Shown here: piece after piece, positions 1-40,450 of the stretch
Layout of the letters: each line of letters begins with the position of its first letter
Position numbering within the stretch: the first letter of the stretch is position 1
DNA from: Gammaproteobacteria bacterium
GTDB lineage: Bacteria > Pseudomonadota > Gammaproteobacteria > Eutrophobiales > Eutrophobiaceae
NCBI GenBank assembly: GCA_965220815.1
Contig: OZ244846.1
Location: forward strand, 2,244,353-2,308,352
Length of the DNA stretch: 64,000 nt
Direction of reading: 5' to 3'
Translations under genes and position numbers: made by a program
The notes under the pieces: model-generated
What the model was told of the DNA's origin: nothing
The model's input: only the letters and a program-made list of their open reading frames with translations
Databases searched by the model: none

Positions 1-82
1 CCATGAATTCATTTCATTTGCGATTTTTTTCAGGTCTGCGTAGAAGTATCTGTCCACAGGAATTTGCTCCATCGTTGGGTTG

Positions 83-307
83 CTACTCGGGAAAGCAGGT
101 GATTACATGTCCGCCACGGATACAGAAGGTGATTCCACCTTTCTTAATCTTAAAATTGGTATTACCAGCAATGTCAACTACCTGCCGCAATCTTGGTGTA
201 TTCAAGACATCTTCAAGATATTGGCGGAATCTTTCAGTATCGATTCCTTCGGCCCGTTCCATATATCGCAATAAGGCATGATCGGTGATTTTCATCGCTC
301 GTTTCAT
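83..307 (-). CDS. DUF4258-family small protein, 74 aa, putative toxin-like partner of the upstream XRE protein
   Basis: Intact ORF. The N-terminal motif ITDHALLRYMERAEGI resembles the DUF4258 signature (H-A-x-x-R-M-x-E-R-G-I). A 4-nt ATGA overlap couples it to the upstream gene. Locally AT-rich. Confidence 0.55.
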   Translation of the reverse strand: MKRAMKITDHALLRYMERAEGIDTERFRQYLEDVLNTPRLRQVVDIAGNTNFKIKKGGITFCIRGGHVITCFPE

Positions 308-1257
308 GACTCATCTCCTTTAATAAATTTCTCAAGGAGGTTCTCAAAACGCTCGCGTTCTTCCATAATCTCGCGGGTCTTGTCACTCAGCTTATTTTCA
401 AGCCAATCGATCCGCCTGTCCCTGGCCTGTTTTGCCATGAGTTCCCTGGGAATGTCAGATAGGCGTACATCGCCATGCTCCAAGGCCCATCGGGCATACT
501 TGGAATCGCCGGAGATTTCGTTTAGCTCGTTTCGGCAAATCTGGTAGGGTTCAGTTCCCCAGGGATCATCGGCAACACCAGAGCCGAAATCGACAATGCC
601 GGAGATTCCAAGATCTTTCGAAAATTTACATAAGTAATCCGCGAACGGCGTGACCTCGTACAAGGCTTCATCAGCAAAATCCAGGTTAGCGTCGTCCCTG
701 TTTCTCAACGTATCACCTCGGAGGTCAGCGGCCTCAATGGATTCTTTTTCAGCCCAGAAACCACACTCAATGTTTCCCTGATAATACGTAAAGTAAAGAT
801 GACTCCATTTTTTGCCAAACGCACTTAAACGGTCCATAGCCTCCTCTACCTCGTCAACGTACTGACGACGCCAGGCGAGACTGCCCTCGGCCAGCAACAC
901 GAAAAGGAGAGGCGCCAGATTAATGATATCCCTTTGGCTCGCACCGTAGCGATGCTTCACCAAATCGTATGCGAGCCGCACTTGAGGACTGGTCCTGGTA
1001 CCGAGTTGGATATCAGCATTCGTTTGAGGGACTGGCTGGACAGGATCAAGAGGTTTGTTACCAACAAGTATTTCCCTGTCAACTTTCAATGCACCGGCCA
1101 GCCGGATAACCGTATTTTCGCGTACAGTTACACTTGTCTTTGAGTCCTCGATACGCGCAATTTGCCTTGCTGAAACTTTCGAGTTATCGGCAAGTTTCTG
1201 TCGAGACCACCCTTTCTGGCCCCGCAATGCTTTCAGACATTCTGGGTTGATGTTCAT
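304..1257 (-). CDS. XRE-family helix-turn-helix protein with a ~230-aa C-terminal domain of unknown function, 317 aa
   Basis: The N-terminus (LRGQKGWSRQKLADNSKVSARQIARIE) is a classic HTH_XRE. The remainder has no recognisable HEXXH or other catalytic motif. Translationally coupled to the DUF4258 gene. Confidence 0.6.
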   Translation of the reverse strand: MNINPECLKALRGQKGWSRQKLADNSKVSARQIARIEDSKTSVTVRENTVIRLAGALKVDREILVGNKPLDPVQPVPQTNADIQLGTRTSPQVRLAYDLVKHRYGASQRDIINLAPLLFVLLAEGSLAWRRQYVDEVEEAMDRLSAFGKKWSHLYFTYYQGNIECGFWAEKESIEAADLRGDTLRNRDDANLDFADEALYEVTPFADYLCKFSKDLGISGIVDFGSGVADDPWGTEPYQICRNELNEISGDSKYARWALEHGDVRLSDIPRELMAKQARDRRIDWLENKLSDKTREIMEERERFENLLEKFIKGDES

Positions 1258-1344
1258 AAACTTACCTCAATTGTTGATATAAAGCTTTTCAGCCTTTTTA
1301 CTCGACACTGGGTAAATAATAACGCTATTTTTTCATAAAATAAT

Positions 1345-1362
1345 ATGACATTAATGTGTCAT
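1345..1362. promoter_or_regulatory. Inverted repeat ATGACA-TTAATG-TGTCAT in the AT-rich region upstream of the XRE-DUF4258 operon, candidate autoregulatory operator
   Basis: Palindrome seen directly in sequence, about 100 bp upstream of the XRE start at 1257. The surrounding 1258-1400 is very AT-rich and promoter-like. Confidence 0.3.
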
Positions 1363-1535
1363 TTCATCAATATTGTACTATTGATTATGCCATATCATGC
1401 CATTTAATAAAGACTAACTGCTCGTACTTCCATCTTAAATTGCAGACGACAGTCACGAAGGGCAAGTGGGCGGCTCAATGGCTTCTTCTCCCTGGACTTC
1501 AACATCCAGGAATATGCTTCGCCGGAACGAAGTGA

Positions 1536-1680
1536 ACCGTTACTTCGGATTACTCCAAAATCTGGATAAATCCGTCGCGGTTGGGCATTTTGACGTCGGC
1601 GAGGGTGTCGGCGTAGGGCCAGAAAGTGCCGATGGTTTTCTCCTGCCATTCGTCTGTGAGTTGCATGAGATACTTTATCT
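1536..1680 (-). pseudogene. Degenerate partial duplicate of the 3' end of the sorB cytochrome c gene, with an internal deletion of about 130 nt
   Basis: Nucleotides 1536-1590 are near-identical to 2350-2400 (TTACTTCGGATTA.TC.AAAATCTGGATAAA.CCGTCGCGGTTGGGCAT). Nucleotides 1610-1680 match 2540-2620 (GGCGTAGGGCCAGAA.GTGCCGATGGTTTT.TCC.GCCATTCGTC.GT.AG.TGCAT). The reverse translation gives MQLTDEW.EKTIGTFWPYA...MPNRDGFIQIL, which is the SorB C-terminus missing its middle. Confidence 0.6.
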
Positions 1681-1776
1681 TCATTATCAGGAGGGTGCGT
1701 TAGACTGGGTAGTCTGACCCGATACTATATGTGCATTGTGCGACCTGACCCCATTTGTGCACTATGAATTGATGTA

Positions 1777-2073
1777 TTACTGCTGGATATATCGCTGAAT
1801 ATCCAAAGCGCCGTGAAATACGCCAAGAATCTCAACCAGATCAGGTTTTACCAGATAAGCTATTCTGTAATGTCCATAAAGCAGAATGCGTATCTCGCCA
1901 TCGACTTCGTCTTTGTATTGATATCCTATCTTCGGAAAGACCTTAAGTACTTGTGCTTTCTCATATATTCCTTCAACTACCTTTTGGGCTGCAACAGGAT
2001 TATCTTCCGATATGTATTCATAAATATCCGACAACCATGCCGCCGCCTCTTCTGTCCATCTTATTTCTGCCAT
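1777..2073 (-). CDS. Type II toxin, RelE/ParE family, 98 aa
   Basis: Size, position downstream of a small antitoxin ORF with overlap, and RelE/ParE-like sequence (…RILLYGHYRIAYLVKPDLVEILGVFHGALD…). Confidence 0.75.
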   Translation of the reverse strand: MAEIRWTEEAAAWLSDIYEYISEDNPVAAQKVVEGIYEKAQVLKVFPKIGYQYKDEVDGEIRILLYGHYRIAYLVKPDLVEILGVFHGALDIQRYIQQ

Positions 2074-2246
2074 GCGCTTATCCTGCGCTTCATCTCCTCA
2101 TCTGAGATTGTTCTGCCTTCCCGAGAATCCTCCAGTCCCCTCGCGATCATTTGTTCAAATGCAAGCTCTCTGAGTATTTCATCGTAAGATGAGTCCTCCG
2201 GCTGAGCCTGGATTAGTTCAGTCATTCTTTCTTTTACAACGGACAT
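2061..2246 (-). CDS. Small antitoxin (addiction-module antidote family) paired with RelE/ParE, about 61 aa
   Basis: Small acidic ORF (MSVVKERMTELIQAQPEDSSYDEILRELAFEQMIARGLED…EEMKRRISAWQK) overlapping the toxin start. The track ORF extends to 2315, but the internal ATG at 2246 gives the typical size. Confidence 0.55.
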   Translation of the reverse strand: MSVVKERMTELIQAQPEDSSYDEILRELAFEQMIARGLEDSREGRTISDEEMKRRISAWQK

Positions 2247-2358
2247 GAATAATGGCTGTTCAGTTAGTGAGCACGGCTTCAATGAACTTGAAGTCTCATT
2301 ATAACGGAAAATCAAAAAACCATATAGCTTGTCCGTTGTTTGGAGCAGTTACTTCGGA

Positions 2359-2898
2359 TTAATCTAAAATCTGGATAAAACCGTCGCGGTTGGGCATCCT
2401 CACATCAGCAAGAGAGGCAGCGTTCATCTCCTGGTCTTCCGGGATGATCTCATTCAGGTAAAGCAGGTAGGCAGTGATCGCATACACTTCGGAGTCGGTC
2501 AGGTTGCCCGGTTGCATCATGGGCTTGGAGCGGCGGATGAAATCAAACAGGGTGGGGGCGTAGGGCCAGAAGGTGCCGATGGTTTTTTCCGGCCATTCGT
2601 CGGTAAGCTGCATTTGCGCGCCGGCAAGCTGGTCGCCGCTGTCACCGAGGCCGCCGGGGCCGTGGCAGGACAGGCACAACCTGTCATAGATAGCTCTGCC
2701 CTGCTCTGCCGTGCCGCTGCCTTCGGGGAGGCCGGCGCCGTTCGGCATGATGCCCCAGTCCTGGCTGCTGACGGCGCGGCTGTCCGCCGGCTCGCCCAGG
2801 TCCGGGCCGGGAGTTGGCTCACCGGCGCCGGGACTAATCCCAGTCAGCATCAATACTGACGTCAGTACCAGACTGCTTCTGTTCGGCATCATAAACAT
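2359..2898 (-). CDS. sorB: Sulfite dehydrogenase cytochrome c subunit (SorB-like monoheme cytochrome c)
   Basis: N-terminal signal peptide and a single CLSCHGPGG heme-binding motif. Lies immediately downstream of, and overlapping, the molybdopterin subunit gene. Start uncertain (several in-frame Met). Confidence 0.7.
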   Translation of the reverse strand: MFMMPNRSSLVLTSVLMLTGISPGAGEPTPGPDLGEPADSRAVSSQDWGIMPNGAGLPEGSGTAEQGRAIYDRLCLSCHGPGGLGDSGDQLAGAQMQLTDEWPEKTIGTFWPYAPTLFDFIRRSKPMMQPGNLTDSEVYAITAYLLYLNEIIPEDQEMNAASLADVRMPNRDGFIQILD

Positions 2899-4147
2899 GG
2901 GTCACGTCACCGTATTCATCCACGCTCCAGGTGACGATGGCGTTGTAATGGTAAAAACCCTGCCTGCCCCGTTCGGCAAGAAGTTGTTCCCGTTCCGGTT
3001 GCACATATCCCGTCTCGTCAACGGCCCTGCTTTGCAATATGGCCGGCGACCCGTCCCATTGCCAGGGTATGCGGAAACGGGTAAACGCCTTGGGCAGCAC
3101 CGGGTCCTGCAATTCCGCCGGCGCCCAGGTCTTGCCGCCGTCAGCGGAGACGTCCACCTGTTTTATCCGTCCCCGGCCGCTCCAGGCCAGGCCGGTGACC
3201 TGGTACAGTCCCGGCCCCTGTTTCAATACCATGCCGCCTGACGGAGAAGTGATCAGTGATTTTGCCTCCATGGTGAACGTGAACATACGCGCCTTGCCGG
3301 AGGGCAACAGTTCGGTGTACCGCGCCGTTTCGTTCCTTGCCATGATGGGTTTCTCCACGGCCTTCAACGCCCGCAACCATTTCACGTTCAATACGCCCTC
3401 CCAGCCCGGCAGGATCAGGCGCAACGGGTAGCCGTTCTCCGGTCTCAGGCGCTCGCCGTTCTGGTACAGGGCCAGGATTGCATCGTCCATGGCTTTTTCG
3501 ATAGGTACGCTGATATTCATGGCAAAGGCGTCCGCGCCGTCCGCAATCAACCATTTGGCTGATTCTTCGATACCTGCCTCTGCCAGTACGGTCGCCAGCG
3601 GCACGCCGGTCCACTCACTGCATGAAACCAGGCCGTGAAAATAGCCGGCCTCCGCACGGGAGGGGGTTTTATTCCAGCCCGCGTTGCTGTTGCCGCCGCA
3701 CTCGACAAAACAGATCTGTGAACGCATCGGGTAACGCAACAGGTTGTCGATGCTGAAAAATGCCGGTTGGCGCACCAGGCCGTGCACCAGCAGACGGTGT
3801 TCATCAGGATTGATTTGCGGCACCCCGTTATGGTGCCGTTCGTAATGCAGGCCGTTCGGGGTGATCATGCCTTCCAGCCGATGCAGCGGCGTCCAGGAGG
3901 CGCCGTTGTTGCGCAATACCCGGTTCGGCGCCGGATAACGGACTACATCCTCTTCAAATTGCGCCGGTTGTCCATAAGGCGTAAACGGCTCACCCGGTAC
4001 GCTCATCGACTCGGGTCTGGCCGCTGCAGCCTGAACGTTACCCGCCACCAGTTGGGCGGTCCCCAGCGCGACGCCGCCCTGCAGGAACAGGCGCCGGTCC
4101 AGCAGACCGTTGCCGGCAACGGGGGTCAAGGGCGGAATGTTTTTCAT
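2834..4147 (-). CDS. sorA: Sulfite:cytochrome c oxidoreductase molybdopterin subunit (SorA/SUOX family), Tat-secreted
   Basis: Twin-arginine motif RRLFLQGG at the N-terminus. Moco-binding sulfite oxidase family sequence and dimerisation domain over 437 aa. Confidence 0.85.
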   Translation of the reverse strand: MKNIPPLTPVAGNGLLDRRLFLQGGVALGTAQLVAGNVQAAAARPESMSVPGEPFTPYGQPAQFEEDVVRYPAPNRVLRNNGASWTPLHRLEGMITPNGLHYERHHNGVPQINPDEHRLLVHGLVRQPAFFSIDNLLRYPMRSQICFVECGGNSNAGWNKTPSRAEAGYFHGLVSCSEWTGVPLATVLAEAGIEESAKWLIADGADAFAMNISVPIEKAMDDAILALYQNGERLRPENGYPLRLILPGWEGVLNVKWLRALKAVEKPIMARNETARYTELLPSGKARMFTFTMEAKSLITSPSGGMVLKQGPGLYQVTGLAWSGRGRIKQVDVSADGGKTWAPAELQDPVLPKAFTRFRIPWQWDGSPAILQSRAVDETGYVQPEREQLLAERGRQGFYHYNAIVTWSVDEYGDVTHVYDAEQKQSGTDVSIDADWD

Positions 4148-4157
4148 GTCTTTAATG

Positions 4158-4274
4158 ATTTATCCGCAGATGACGCAGATTAACGCAGATAAAATAATAG
4201 TTATTATTTATCATAAATGTCGTTAATAAAATCTGAAAAAATATCTGCGCTAATCTGCGTCATCTGCGGATAAA
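4158..4274. repeat. 32-bp near-perfect inverted repeat (TTTATCCGCAGATGACGCAGATTAACGCAGAT / reverse complement, 31/32 matches) flanking a 52-bp AT-rich spacer, between the prmB stop and the sorA start
   Basis: Read directly. Each arm contains three GCAGAT/CGCAGAT submotifs. The spacer itself holds a mini-palindrome AAATAATAGTTATTATTT. Both flanking ORFs read into the arms and acquire the same DLSADDAD C-terminal artefact. Confidence 0.7.
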
Positions 4275-5137
4275 TCAACCTCGCTCGTTATAACAAAAAC
4301 ACCTTCCCCCCCATGCTCAAAGTCAAGCCAGATGAAAGGAGTACGGGGATATTTCGTCTCAAGCGCAGCGCGGCCGTTACCGACTTCCACTACCAGGATA
4401 CCGTGGGGCGTTAGATGCTCGTGGGCATTGAGCAATATATTATCTACCACGTCCAGGCCGGTGGCGCCCGCCGCCAGGGCAAGGGACGGTTCATGCCGGT
4501 ATTCAGCCGGCAATGCCGCCATTTCCCCATCGGTTACATACGGCGGATTGCAGACAATTATATCATACCTGCTGCCTCCCAATGCGCTGAACAGGTCTGA
4601 TTCGACCAGGTTTACCCGCTGTCCCAGGCCGTGTCTTTCACAATTGATGCGCGCCACTTCGAGCGCATCCGGACTGATGTCCGTTGCATCGACAATCGCG
4701 GTGGGAAAGGCCAGGGCACAGGCGACGGCAATACAACCGCTGCCGGCGCCCAGGTCCAGGATGCGCGTTACATCCGGGGCCTTAATCCAGGGTGAGAACC
4801 TGTCACGGACCAGTTCGGCAATGGGTGAGCGGGGGACTAGGACGCGCTCGTCCACGTAGAACGGCAGGCCGGCAAACCAGGCCTTGTTGAGCAGGTAGGC
4901 CGTGGGCTTCCTGGAGCTGATCCTTTCGTCCACCAGTGCCCTGATACGCTCCTGGTCAGTTGTGCTTAATTCTCCGTTCAATTGTTCCTGGTTAAGGTCA
5001 AACGGCAAGTCCAGCGCACCTAACACCAGGTATGCGGCCTCATCCAGGGCGTTATCGGCGCCGTGGCCGAAAAACAGGTCCGACCGGATAAACTGTTGCT
5101 CGGTCCAGTCAATAAGTTGTCGGGGGGTAGTAAACAT
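4250..5137 (-). CDS. prmB: Ribosomal protein L3 N5-glutamine methyltransferase (PrmB, HemK family)
   Basis: SAM-binding motif DLGAGSGCIAV and the NPPY catalytic motif (IIVCNPPYV). Length 295 aa. The C-terminal tail probably reads artefactually into the inverted repeat. Confidence 0.8.
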   Translation of the reverse strand: MFTTPRQLIDWTEQQFIRSDLFFGHGADNALDEAAYLVLGALDLPFDLNQEQLNGELSTTDQERIRALVDERISSRKPTAYLLNKAWFAGLPFYVDERVLVPRSPIAELVRDRFSPWIKAPDVTRILDLGAGSGCIAVACALAFPTAIVDATDISPDALEVARINCERHGLGQRVNLVESDLFSALGGSRYDIIVCNPPYVTDGEMAALPAEYRHEPSLALAAGATGLDVVDNILLNAHEHLTPHGILVVEVGNGRAALETKYPRTPFIWLDFEHGGEGVFVITSEVDLSADDAD

Positions 5138-5179
5138 GAAAACTTTGCATTACCTGTATAGAGCGCATACACTATCACA

Positions 5180-5251
5180 ATGGACGTTGAATGGGACCCG
5201 GCCAAGTACGGCTTATCTCTGCACGTCGTGCTACGAAACTTGAGCGTAATG
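5180..5251 (+). pseudogene. Remnant of a BrnT-type toxin gene (only about 24 codons, MDVEWDPAKYGL…)
   Basis: The N-terminus matches the BrnT start (xVWDxxK) but runs straight into the brnA reading frame. The toxin body is absent. Confidence 0.4.
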
Positions 5252-7070
<1,819 letters not shown>

Positions 7071-37055: not shown

Positions 37056-38582
37056 CTACTGGTATTCCCTGTCATAAACCATTCCGCCTACATAAGTAAC
37101 AGTTGCCGATACAGCGCCATCGGCAGAACGGGAGACCCATTGACCGCTCTTCTTGCCGTCCACGTAAAGACCTTCAAATACACCGCCATCATCGTAGCGG
37201 AAGACCCACTCACCGCTCTTCTTGCCCTCTACATAGGAGCCTTCCTCCACATGGGCGGAGGTGCGGAGGGTCCACTGGCCGTGCCGCTTGCCATCCATAT
37301 AAGGGCCTTCGGATACGCTGCCATCAGTGTAGCGAATGACCCACTGACCCTGCCGCTTGCCGTCCACGTGGGGCCCTTCCGCTACAATGACGCTGGCAGA
37401 TGAGCGCATCCCACCGAGATGCATGGCGTCCACGTAGCGGTCGTTCTCCACAGTGCCATCGGCGTAACGAATGATCCCCTGGCCTTGTGGCATGCCGTCC
37501 ACGTAGAAGCGTTCGTATACATTTCCATCGGCGTAACGGAAGTTCCAATGGCCGTGCCGTTCGTCGTCCACGAAGGAGCCTTCCTCCACATTTCCATTGG
37601 CATGACGGAAGATCCACTGGCCGTTCCGCTTGCCCCCCACATAGGAGCCTCTCGCTATACTGCCCTCGAAGGTGCGATGGGTCCACTGGCCGTGCATCTC
37701 GCCGTTCACATAAGAGCCTCCCCCATCCTCGCCATCGGCAAAGCGAATCAGCCAATGACCATGCTTAATGCCGTTCACGTAGGGGCCTTCCTCCACATCG
37801 CCATTGGCATGGCGAATCACCCAATGACCGTGCTGTTTGCCGTCCACGAAGGAGCCTCCCCCCACATCGCCACTGGCATAGCGAATGACCCACTGACCGT
37901 GTTCCTTGCCGTCCAAGTAGGAGCCTTCGAGTACAGCAGCGTCATCAGCAAGGCGAATCACCCACGGACCGTGCTGTTTGCCGTCCACGAAGGAACCTTC
38001 ATACACAACAGCGTCATCGACGGAGCGCATGATCCAGCGGCCGTGCCGCTTGCCGCCCTTAAACTGCCCTGTGTTTGTGTTCTTTGTCTCTCCATCACCT
38101 TTCAAATCCCAGGTATCCTCACCCATTCCTTCCGCCAGTCCGTTGGCACATCTGCCGCTCCATGTGACGGTTGAGTTGGCTATCAGACTGGGGTTCCAGA
38201 TATAACATCCGGTTGGGTCTTCCAACTCCATCCAGCATGCGCTGCCCTCCGGTTTGTCCGCGCACGTCATCTTGTCTTCCTGTAGCTTTTCTGCATCCGA
38301 TGGTGCGCCAATTCCGTTGCCCATCATGGCCGCAATTACGCTTTCCGCTATGCCCGCCTCCCGGAGCGCAACAAGCTGTTCTTCCGACATGTCAAAGTCG
38401 GTTCGACCGGACCGGATTATGGCGATGATGATTTCAGTCTCCAGCCCAGCCCGGTTCAAGCGCAGGATGTCCTCATTGGTGAGCGCCGCATCGTCGGCGC
38501 CAGGGGCCGGTGTGATAACAAGTATTAGAAGCCATACAGAAACCATTTGCCGGAAGAGGCTAGTCAGGGGCATCGTTTTCAT
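37056..38582 (-). CDS. Secreted MORN-repeat protein, about 15 tandem ~23-aa MORN-like units
   Basis: Signal peptide (MKTMPLTSLFRQMVSVWLLILVITPAPGA), then a Cys-containing N-terminal domain, then repeated G.Y.DGK.HG.WVIR.ADG…EG units. The start at 38582 forms an ATGA overlap with the upstream methyltransferase-like gene. Confidence 0.7.
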   Translation of the reverse strand: MKTMPLTSLFRQMVSVWLLILVITPAPGADDAALTNEDILRLNRAGLETEIIIAIIRSGRTDFDMSEEQLVALREAGIAESVIAAMMGNGIGAPSDAEKLQEDKMTCADKPEGSACWMELEDPTGCYIWNPSLIANSTVTWSGRCANGLAEGMGEDTWDLKGDGETKNTNTGQFKGGKRHGRWIMRSVDDAVVYEGSFVDGKQHGPWVIRLADDAAVLEGSYLDGKEHGQWVIRYASGDVGGGSFVDGKQHGHWVIRHANGDVEEGPYVNGIKHGHWLIRFADGEDGGGSYVNGEMHGQWTHRTFEGSIARGSYVGGKRNGQWIFRHANGNVEEGSFVDDERHGHWNFRYADGNVYERFYVDGMPQGQGIIRYADGTVENDRYVDAMHLGGMRSSASVIVAEGPHVDGKRQGQWVIRYTDGSVSEGPYMDGKRHGQWTLRTSAHVEEGSYVEGKKSGEWVFRYDDGGVFEGLYVDGKKSGQWVSRSADGAVSATVTYVGGMVYDREYQ

Positions 38583-39397
38583 CTCTGGCATTCCAGTTCC
38601 CAACCCATGCTGCCAGCCAATTCTGCGAGTTCCCGGTTCCGCCCTTTCACGAGTTTCGCCAAGTTATCAGAGAGCAGAACCCCACATCCCTTAAGGTCCT
38701 GGCTGGGCTTTGCCCCGCAGTCAGACCACAAAACCTGCCACGCCTCACATTGCGTGCGTTCCAGCAACTTCAGCGGCTTTGTAGGCCAGAAAAACGGATA
38801 CCAGGCCGCAAACGACTGATCTTGGCATTTCAGTTTTTTACATGTCTCAGCCAGGGAATTCCAATCCCTGTCCCTGGCTGCATTTGGAGAAAACGGAGGG
38901 TCGAGAAATGTCAAATCTTTGTCATTTTTATCGACGGCTCTTGTGAATCCATCATCTTGACAGAATGTCACTTCAACATTTTCGGGAACATATCCCCTTT
39001 TTTTCAGGTTGTACAAATCTTCATCACTATAATGGCATGCAACTTCCTCGCTGTTATCAAAGAGTGAAATCTGTACCCGTTTGAATCTTTTAGCAAGTAC
39101 ATTTGCTACGACCAGCCAACCGGACGGATATTTTTCCGGCGAATATTTTTTGACTATGTCCACATAAAAGTTGTCATTTGTTTCGCTATCAATTAAACAT
39201 TTGACGCCATGCTGCCATCCCCTGCCTTTGCTCAGGATATGAACAGGCGCGCCTGCGTGGCAATCAATATAGTGAATGGAATCTGAAGCCGAGGATAAAT
39301 TCCTTGCAATAATGGTCAGTATGAAATGTTTCCAGACATCACCCCTGTTTCCAGCTTTTTTGGAGTGATTGTAGCGTTTAACGTGGGAGTTGCCCAT
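38579..39397 (-). CDS. RlmJ/DUF519-family N6-adenine methyltransferase-like protein, 272 aa, divergent and low GC
   Basis: YNHSKKAGNRGDVWKHFIL matches RlmJ YRHSFHAGNHADVLKH. YIDCHAGAP matches YLDTHAGAG. FLDPPF matches IDPPYE (catalytic DPPY/F). AAWYPFF matches ALWYPV. Confidence 0.55.
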   Translation of the reverse strand: MGNSHVKRYNHSKKAGNRGDVWKHFILTIIARNLSSASDSIHYIDCHAGAPVHILSKGRGWQHGVKCLIDSETNDNFYVDIVKKYSPEKYPSGWLVVANVLAKRFKRVQISLFDNSEEVACHYSDEDLYNLKKRGYVPENVEVTFCQDDGFTRAVDKNDKDLTFLDPPFSPNAARDRDWNSLAETCKKLKCQDQSFAAWYPFFWPTKPLKLLERTQCEAWQVLWSDCGAKPSQDLKGCGVLLSDNLAKLVKGRNRELAELAGSMGWELECQR

Positions 39398-39421
39398 GAT
39401 CAGTATCAGTTGTGCTTCTGT

Positions 39422-39907
39422 TCAGTTGTGCTTCTCTAGCATCTCATTCAGCCAGGCTTTGGGGGGCTTGAGTTCTTTGCCTTTCAGCTTTAAAACCCCG
39501 TTCCGGACTACTTCAATTTCCAGGCGCTGCCTACCGTTTCTCCGGTAACTTCCGATCCAGCCCATCTGGCCAGAGTTGGGCAGGTCCGCCCAATTGCCAG
39601 CCATGCTTACGCCGTTATCCACTAAGACCCGGGTGAATGCCTTATGGTCGAATCGAATCGTACCGTTGTCCACGTAGTTAAACTGCCCTGCCAGTTTCTT
39701 TGCCAACCAGTCACTGTAGTAATTCGGGTTACGATACTCCTTAACTGCTTCCTTGATTGCATCCTCAATTACGGATTTTTTTAAAGCATACTCAACGTGT
39801 GCTTCCACTCTTTCCCAAACCTCGTCCGTGACTTCAATTCCACGCCAAATCTCATGGCCATTTGGCCATTCCTCTCTTTTTATTTCTACTTCGATGATTT
39901 TATTCAT
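39422..39907 (-). CDS. Hypothetical protein, 161 aa, first gene of the low-GC three-gene operon
   Basis: ORF with RBS-compatible spacing. No recognisable domain. GC content clearly below the window average. Confidence 0.4.
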   Translation of the reverse strand: MNKIIEVEIKREEWPNGHEIWRGIEVTDEVWERVEAHVEYALKKSVIEDAIKEAVKEYRNPNYYSDWLAKKLAGQFNYVDNGTIRFDHKAFTRVLVDNGVSMAGNWADLPNSGQMGWIGSYRRNGRQRLEIEVVRNGVLKLKGKELKPPKAWLNEMLEKHN

Positions 39908-39943
39908 CTTTAGGCTTTTGGCTCATCTGTGTGTGGACAAGGA

Positions 39944-40450
39944 CTAATACTCCGTCACACCCAGCTTGTCCTTGATTTTGACAATCAGTTCTTCGCGGCG
40001 ATGATGCATGTCGATCAGCGGTTCCTTGCGTAACTTTGCGATTTCCTCCGAGTCATAGGGCACGAACGGGTCGGGAAGTTCATTTTTGCTGAAATTCAGC
40101 AGCATCCAGTTCATCACGTCGGCCAGTTCCTGGTCCGAGATGGGGGCGCCGGCCGCGCCCGGGACCTGTACGATGAATTCCCTGCCGCCGGGCACGTGCA
40201 GGAAGTAACCGACGAAATCGTTCATCTTCGGTACGTTACCCTTGGAGCCGGACCCGTCCGGCAGGTGGCAGCCCTGGCAGTTCAGGATGTAGTTCTGGCG
40301 CGCAAGTATTTCATTGGCGCCGGTAGTTGCGCTGGCGCTTAACAGGATCAGGAGCAGGAATCCGGTGAATAATGTGTTGCCAAGGGTGGCATGTTTGTCT
40401 ACGTCCCTGTTCCTGGATACCGGCCATTCCCTGGCCGGTATGACGAACAA
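39944..40450 (-). CDS. Monoheme c-type cytochrome, periplasmic, candidate electron acceptor for the adjacent amine dehydrogenase
   Basis: A single CQGCH motif. The proposed TTG start at 40450 yields a signal peptide (…TLFTGFLLLILLSASATTGA). The track ORF extends further upstream into mauA. Confidence 0.6.
   Translation of the reverse strand: MFVIPAREWPVSRNRDVDKHATLGNTLFTGFLLLILLSASATTGANEILARQNYILNCQGCHLPDGSGSKGNVPKMNDFVGYFLHVPGGREFIVQVPGAAGAPISDQELADVMNWMLLNFSKNELPDPFVPYDSEEIAKLRKEPLIDMHHRREELIVKIKDKLGVTEY

Follow-up and report, generated by a model that had tools for sequence, protein, structure and literature searches.

Gene content and base composition of the islet

The window analysed here is a whole 64,000 nt stretch of contig OZ244846.1, from a gammaproteobacterial assembly, and at its left end lies an AT-rich islet carrying a pair of coupled genes on the minus strand. 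The upstream gene of the pair (304..1257) encodes a 317 aa protein with an N-terminal XRE helix-turn-helix (HTH) segment (residues 7–62, nt 1072..1239) and an all-helical C-terminal domain of about 230 aa (residues ~88–317, nt 307..996). The downstream gene (83..307) encodes a 74 aa protein that is a member of the phage protein family phrog_8252. The two open reading frames (ORFs) share a 4 nt overlap, ATGA, and Shine-Dalgarno-like sequences can be read about 8 nt 5′ of both starts: GAGG for the large gene and AAGGAG, within the end of the large gene, for the small one. An original prediction, made from the nucleotide sequence of the window, had described a two-gene operon. The coupled pair is real, but a third gene follows it. 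The first 24 codons of this gene (1..72, minus strand) were seen by alignment with the near-identical contig L001, where the protein is 245 aa long, and in the window its ORF runs from about nt 72 out of the left edge.

The islet (1–2315) has a GC content of 0.455, compared to 0.577 for the remainder of the window, and the bin at 1001–2000 (GC 0.435) is the lowest of the window's 64 bins of 1 kb, so that its earlier description as an AT-rich islet is accurate.

The large protein and its C-terminal domain

Residues 7–62 of the 317 aa protein match the Pfam models HTH_31 (32 bits, cutoff 27) and HTH_3 (27.2 bits, cutoff 23), which places the protein among the XRE-family HTH regulators (PF01381/PF13560) by gathering score. 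The remaining ~230 aa showed no match in Pfam, NCBIfam, PADLOC, PHROGs, the Protein Data Bank (PDB) or viral fold libraries, as anticipated by the original prediction, which had noted a large XRE partner with an unassigned C-terminus. A PDB sequence search using the profile of the large-protein family returned matches to HTHs only, and matches in PADLOC-DB 2.0 were limited to the HTH region (capH, RmrA and others; residues 1–81); the small and third proteins gave no match in the same database, and no anti-phage defence system represented there matches the components beyond a generic HTH. BFVD and the full set of 50,697 phage records likewise lack the C-terminal domain. It is a new domain family, without a known sequence or structural relative. 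The AlphaFold2 (AF2) model of the whole protein has a predicted local distance difference test score (pLDDT) of 82.4.

Searches recovered 360 homologues of the large protein, most of which are longer (395–460 aa) because two tandem HTHs precede the same conserved C-terminal domain. When the domain alone was searched for exhaustively, 669 clusters at 50% identity were obtained. Among these, the domain nearly always starts at residue ~85–100 or ~160–197 and extends to the C-terminus, and it was not found fused to anything except one or two N-terminal HTHs. Natural fusions of the large and small proteins were not found among the long family members, in which the added length comes from low-complexity tails or from duplication of terminal motifs. 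Many charged residues (E124, R130, E170 and D178) are invariant and common to members with either of the two partner classes described below. Just nine positions of the domain are specific to partner class, mostly by conservative changes, and these did not locate the partner interface. In two members (P0275 and P0283) the terminal motif of the domain, ALxxGDxRxSxIPxEL...R..WL, is tandemly duplicated, suggesting that this segment is a separable module.

Conservation of the gene pair

A survey in which one genome per species was scanned gave 46 loci, mostly in metagenome-assembled genomes (MAGs) of uncultured Gammaproteobacteria and Latescibacterota, with up to three copies per genome. The 74 aa family is encoded directly downstream of the large gene in about 19 loci, usually with the same 4 nt overlap, and upstream of it in two. 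In about 17 other loci the coupled slot is filled by an ORF of about 100 aa; five representatives of these scored 29.8, 24.9, 19.4 and 18.3 bits and no match against Pfam DUF4258 (PF14076; cutoff 25 bits). Most of the roughly 36 loci with a partner have the paired, co-directional arrangement that is typical of type II toxin-antitoxin genes, and the type of partner tracks the tree of the C-terminal domain. The translational coupling proposed for the window is therefore kept in dozens of loci. A chance adjacency of two ORFs was ruled out, as they are conserved as a pair. Decayed copies of the large gene also occur.

Gene content around the module differs between loci, with an abundance of PIN, AAA_14/DUF4143, Phd and BrnT genes and transposases. 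Distant homologues are carried by seven plasmids of cultured Alphaproteobacteria (hosts Sphingopyxis, Blastomonas, Ensifer and Rhodovastum), close to integrases, a recombinase, VapBC and a MobF relaxase. In the three plasmids inspected, an ORF of about 100 aa directly follows the large gene, and hhalign links the small protein of this plasmid subtype to the DUF4258-type partners over 83 columns with a probability of 96%. Plasmid pairs from Sphingopyxis, Blastomonas or Rhodovastum include WP_145923706/WP_054735666 and WP_150041021/WP_150041022. Multiple copies occur in Latescibacterota MAGs, such as three in OZ241986.1 (loci L012–L031 and others), and many host names (APA_bin, Porisulfidus and Azotimanducaceae) hint at sponge or marine symbiont metagenomes. 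Very large WD40-repeat proteins are among the neighbours of these loci.

Candidate operators and promoter

Upstream of the large gene is a perfect palindrome, ATGACA-N6-TGTCAT (1345..1362), a candidate for the main operator. It lies between the -35 and -10 elements of a sigma-70-like match that reads towards the operon (ATGAAA-16-TATTAT, 1340..1367, minus strand); this match is weak by itself (9 of 12 positions), and the number of promoter-like sites in the region is not above chance. A second palindrome, ATCAATA-N6-TATTGAT (1366..1385), is not conserved in the syntenic locus L003. Two direct copies of ATGCCAT (ATGGCAT on the strand of the gene), spaced 10 nt apart (1387..1403), are candidates for extra half-sites; L003 has one exact ATGGCAT at the same place and a degenerate second copy. 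The palindrome ATGACA-N6-TGTCAT occurs exactly once in the 64 kb, and with one mismatch allowed 0.07 matches would be expected by chance.

The 180 nt upstream regions of 45 loci were compared with dinucleotide shuffles of the same sequences. The heptamer ATGNCAT occurs 23 times, against 3.3 ± 1.8 (maximum 9) in the shuffled sets, and ATGTC/GACAT occurs 68 times, against 15 ± 3.8, and is present in 39 of the 45 loci. The sites also vary with residue 32 of the recognition helix, a glutamine within the segment SARQIARIE in the window's protein. Loci with Q32 carry 19 TGACAT/TGGCAT sites and 6 GGACAT sites, whereas loci with T32 carry 19 GGACAT sites and 3 of the other kind, although the clades are related and the events are not independent. 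This co-variation supports real HTH-operator pairs and, by extension, autoregulation. The palindrome suggested earlier as an operator of the upstream region looks like a genuine one, with a motif that is enriched across the 45 loci and co-varies with the recognition helix.

A copy of the palindrome with one mismatch (ATGTCAAATCTTTGTCAT) is located at 38908–38925, in a bin (38001–39000) with a GC content of 0.535 and next to a low-GC stretch (bin 39001–40000, GC 0.454). Homologues of the large or small protein were not found near this site.

The small protein and the DUF4258 question

The original prediction had assigned the small ORF to DUF4258, and had made this assignment depend on a match to the family hidden Markov model (HMM). 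The 74 aa protein gave no match to the Pfam DUF4258 model (gathering score 25 bits) even at E ≤ 1, and neither did five further members of its family, so that membership is ruled out at the level of the Pfam HMM. Of the 631 relatives recovered by a profile search, the best 120 all lack a Pfam label. The protein instead matches phrog_8252 (E = 4e-12, 46.9 bits, residues 3–71 of 74), and can be counted as a member of that family. Its AF2 model (pLDDT 92.2) consists of three helices (residues 9–18, 24–35 and 38–47) followed by three strands (52–56, 59–64 and 67–73). The invariant residues of the family are H10, A11, R14, Y15 and R18, all in the first helix, and T70 in the last strand.

A weaker form of the DUF4258 proposal survives, since the same slot in other loci is filled by ORFs at or near the Pfam cutoff. 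Profile alignment of the 74 aa family with these DUF4258-type partners by hhalign gave probabilities of 83.8, 78, 81, 76 and 59%, depending on the alignment and settings, and paired both ends of the proteins, the HAxxRxxxR helix and the VxTxYP strand. Against the plasmid/L010 subtype of small protein the probability was 1%. DUF4258 has been listed among the BECR type II toxins, with the antitoxin gene preceding the toxin gene and without experimental work (Gerdes 2025), and a 2026 preprint assigns it to BECR's colicin-like branch, in which beta1 is often lost and the active site is made up of the terminal strand and a pre-alpha helix that bears Arg/Lys and a conserved His. The positions of the invariant residues of the 74 aa family, in the first helix and last strand, agree with this description. 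In our judgement the 74 aa protein is probably a divergent relative of DUF4258, but not a demonstrable member.

Occurrence of the small family in Mu-like phages

Small-protein loci were sampled from metagenomes with the pattern HA[VL][LVE]RY[LW]ER, so that conservation at those positions is partly built in. The large partner was present in only 3 of the 80 loci sampled, the other 77 being in Mu-like phage regions. There the usual upstream neighbour is a Pfam-verified GemA gene (20 loci), and downstream are genes for Mor-like activators, MT-A70 methylases, lysozymes and terminases. Isolated phages also carry the small gene (Thiobacimonas vB_ThpS-P1, Rhodovulum P1 and RS1, Rhodobacter RC1, Ochrobactrum POA1180 and Microcystis Mwe-Yong1), where it is labelled a 'hypothetical protein' and has GemA/DUF1018 and the late activator as its neighbours on the two sides. 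A direct match to the window's 74 aa sequence was not found in the phage records by tblastn.

In the isolated phages of the Mu-like type, the gene for phrog_8252 is flanked by GemA/DUF1018 and the Mor-type late activator, just ahead of the lysis genes, and shows translational coupling. Its coordinates are 2501–2767 in the record of Thiobacimonas phage vB_ThpS-P1 (L131) and 1986–2210 in that of Ochrobactrum phage POA1180 (L132).

The third gene and the left flank

Contig L001 differs from the window by 3 single-nucleotide polymorphisms over the overlap, and shows the complete third ORF (L001:1409–2146), which starts 10 nt after the small gene. The 245 aa product has no Pfam, PADLOC, PHROG or PDB match. 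Beyond the window edge it includes the sequence RNQVLH, a motif of the HEPN Rx4-6H type, which is kept in L003. If the protein has a HEPN four-helix core, R177 and H182 would be its predicted active-site residues. The third-slot genes of the different loci are not one family. Of 30 third-slot genes, 7 (from three unrelated clusters) have the motif RNxxxH, compared to 10 of 475 background genes, and the third-slot gene of locus L018, from a fourth cluster, matches Pfam HEPN_AbiU2 (36.1 bits, cutoff 26.8). Alignments by hhalign between the clusters with HEPN motifs were not significant. The association with HEPN genes is partial; these genes may be a functional third component, or just the usual content of such islands.

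The left boundary of the islet, which the original prediction could not place, can now be read from L001 and from a close relative, L133 (a 32 kb contig, 96% identical). In L133 the third gene is followed by htpG, mutS, a ferredoxin gene and nhaA. It had been proposed to look left of the window for an integrase or tRNA boundary, and neither was found near the left flank of the module as seen in these relatives. Further ATGGCAT and ATGACAT half-sites occur immediately left of the window (L001:2150–2230), where a short spacer separates the third gene from htpG, so that the islet may be marked by the operator motif at each end.

Interpretation of the module

The pair can be read as a type II toxin-antitoxin-like module that is autoregulated and whose antitoxin domain is novel and unusually large, and we give this reading a probability of about one half. 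The 317 aa protein would bind ATGNCAT-type half-sites over its own promoter through the XRE HTH and repress the operon, while its ~230 aa helical domain would bind and neutralise the product of the coupled downstream gene. That product, a compact phrog_8252 protein of three helices and three strands, is probably related, in divergent form, to the 'colicin-like' BECR RNases of the DUF4258/Ntox49 kind. The invariant His10, Arg14, Tyr15 and Arg18 of the first helix would make up its putative active site together with Thr70 of the last strand, and the protein may cleave RNA, probably tRNA or mRNA. The earlier suggestion of a sensor-fused antitoxin or a defence module is plausible; no PADLOC system matches the components.

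The phage distribution of the small family is a complication for such a module. With 77 of 80 sampled loci borne by phages and lacking the partner, the small protein does not in general need the large one, and the coupling to the large protein, in chromosomes and plasmids, belongs to a sub-branch of the family. Since the family is mostly phage-borne without a partner, the occurrence of the small gene without the large gene is also unusable as toxin-antitoxin evidence. The position of the small gene between GemA and Mor in Mu-like phages might even suggest a regulatory or accessory role, in which case the pair would be of phage derivation and contain no toxin, the XRE protein being a repressor of the CI/Stl type with a helical domain for oligomerisation or signal sensing. 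We consider this unlikely. In about 17 loci the slot is filled by ORFs of which those tested are at or near the cutoff of DUF4258, a predicted BECR toxin family, and the invariant His, Arg, Arg and Tyr with the terminal-strand Thr look catalytic rather than regulatory. Moreover, the C-terminal domain is absent from the phage records and BFVD, and the neighbourhoods of the module resemble toxin-antitoxin islands, not prophages.

The remaining alternatives concern what the pair controls and which protein is the harmful one. The position of the third gene on the same strand with its start 10 nt after the small gene, the enrichment of RNxxxH in third-slot genes (7/30 against 10/475) and the HEPN_AbiU2 match in L018 would fit a three-component, defence-type system, in which the XRE/small pair would control or help a HEPN RNase effector that is encoded downstream and varies between loci, in this case the 245 aa protein. 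However, most loci have no third gene or an unrelated one (transposase, Phd, Mrr_N) and no single family recurs; the 245 aa protein itself matches no HEPN model, nor anything in PADLOC, PHROGs or the PDB; the clusters that bear the motif are not significantly related; L003 has about 213 extra nt ahead of its third gene; and HEPN genes are common in such islands anyway. A system of this kind seems to us quite improbable. Reversed polarity, with the helical domain of the large protein inhibiting growth or acting as an effector and the small protein as its antidote or modulator, is hardly to be expected. It would account for a C-terminal domain that is large for an antitoxin and for charged residues (E124, R130, E170 and D178) that are invariant across both partner classes, but it is the large protein that carries the HTH, and its gene comes first, as in the case of antitoxins. 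In about six loci (L029, L030, L032, L033, L039 and L041) the large gene is apparently full-length and no small gene was detected (limits of 45 aa and E ≤ 1e-3), a state that would be tolerable for an antitoxin and not for a toxin, and the small partners are members of a predicted toxin family or similar to one.

A bolder extension of the toxin-antitoxin-like reading is that the helical domain represents a new fold for recognising small phage-type RNases of the phrog_8252/DUF4258 kind, and that the module, often with a HEPN gene, is an anti-phage sensor. The XRE protein would hold the small RNase and the operon in check until a homologous protein of a Mu-like phage, or some other cue, titrated it, freeing the toxin and switching on the HEPN effector. 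This is a speculation to which we attach very little probability.

Comparison with known systems

The window's pair resembles DUF4258 (PF14076)/Ntox49 modules in that the partner gene is followed by one for a small protein (~70–100 aa), in which the N-terminal helix carries His/Arg and the last strand is conserved. The slot ORFs of sister loci are at or near the Pfam cutoff for this family, whereas the window's protein fails the model and is linked to it by profile alignment at 59–84%. The reported partners of DUF4258, which is itself uncharacterised, are small MqsA-like or HicB-like proteins or fusions, and differ from the 317 aa XRE protein with its novel 230 aa domain. The antitoxins HigA, HipB and MqsA share the HTH family of the large protein (the PDB matches were to the HTHs of HigA, HipB and CapH) and are likewise coupled to a small partner, and autoregulation through a palindromic operator, as they have, would apply to the window's module as well. 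They are only ~70–130 aa long, in contrast to the present proteins, which have a 230 aa helical domain after the HTH and, in many members, two tandem HTHs.

The phrog_8252 proteins of Mu-like phages have the signature TDHAxLRYLER...VxT in common with the window's 74 aa protein, but in phages they occur in an early/middle operon and have no partner of the XRE/C-terminal-domain type. Compared to the Stl repressor of SaPI and the CI/Rep repressors of phages, the C-terminal domain shows no significant similarity (high root-mean-square deviation; TMq ~0.19 against viral structures), and the window's module is outside any prophage or integrase island. Panacea/DUF4065 domains are hyperpromiscuous antitoxin domains. 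As with these, one partner domain is found here with several classes of small partner (the 74 aa family, the DUF4258 type and the plasmid subtype). The classes found here may, however, be a single divergent superfamily, and there is no Pfam match to DUF4065.

What is new is the domain family of the large component, together with a small component that belongs to an unstudied phage family; the arrangement would be no surprise in principle, because the module fits the toxin-antitoxin mould. If the proposed function is correct, the 669 clusters would represent a new and fairly large family of antitoxin or regulator domains. The module would then offer a first way into the function of phrog_8252, which is conserved in Mu-like phages and has no known role, and would link that phage family to the predicted toxins of DUF4258. 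It is present in multiple copies in uncultured marine and symbiont lineages (Latescibacterota and gammaproteobacterial MAGs), and experiments are feasible because cultured members of Sphingopyxis, Blastomonas, Ensifer and Rhodovastum carry it on plasmids.

Other features near the islet

A ParE toxin gene (Pfam 56.7 bits) and an upstream gene for an 84 aa partner are located at 1777–2315 (minus strand). This pair is missing from the syntenic contigs L003 and L133, and is flanked by duplicated pieces of the 3′ end of a cytochrome c gene. The remnants lie at 1539–1666, where 1539–1614 resembles 2348–2423 and 1602–1666 resembles 2549–2613. Because of this absence and the flanking duplications, the ParE pair looks like a later, strain-specific insertion, which leaves a unit of three genes as the ancestral islet, bounded by the Mo-oxidoreductase/cytochrome c genes on one side and htpG on the other.

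An Rfam scan over 1–6000 returned no real family. Just upstream of the start of the Mo-oxidoreductase gene (4156–4277) there is a long, near-perfect hairpin with arms of about 36 bp and an AT-rich loop (DNA fold -41 kcal/mol, z -12.7), and it is because of this long hairpin that the region gives sub-threshold Rfam matches to 'miRNA precursor' models.
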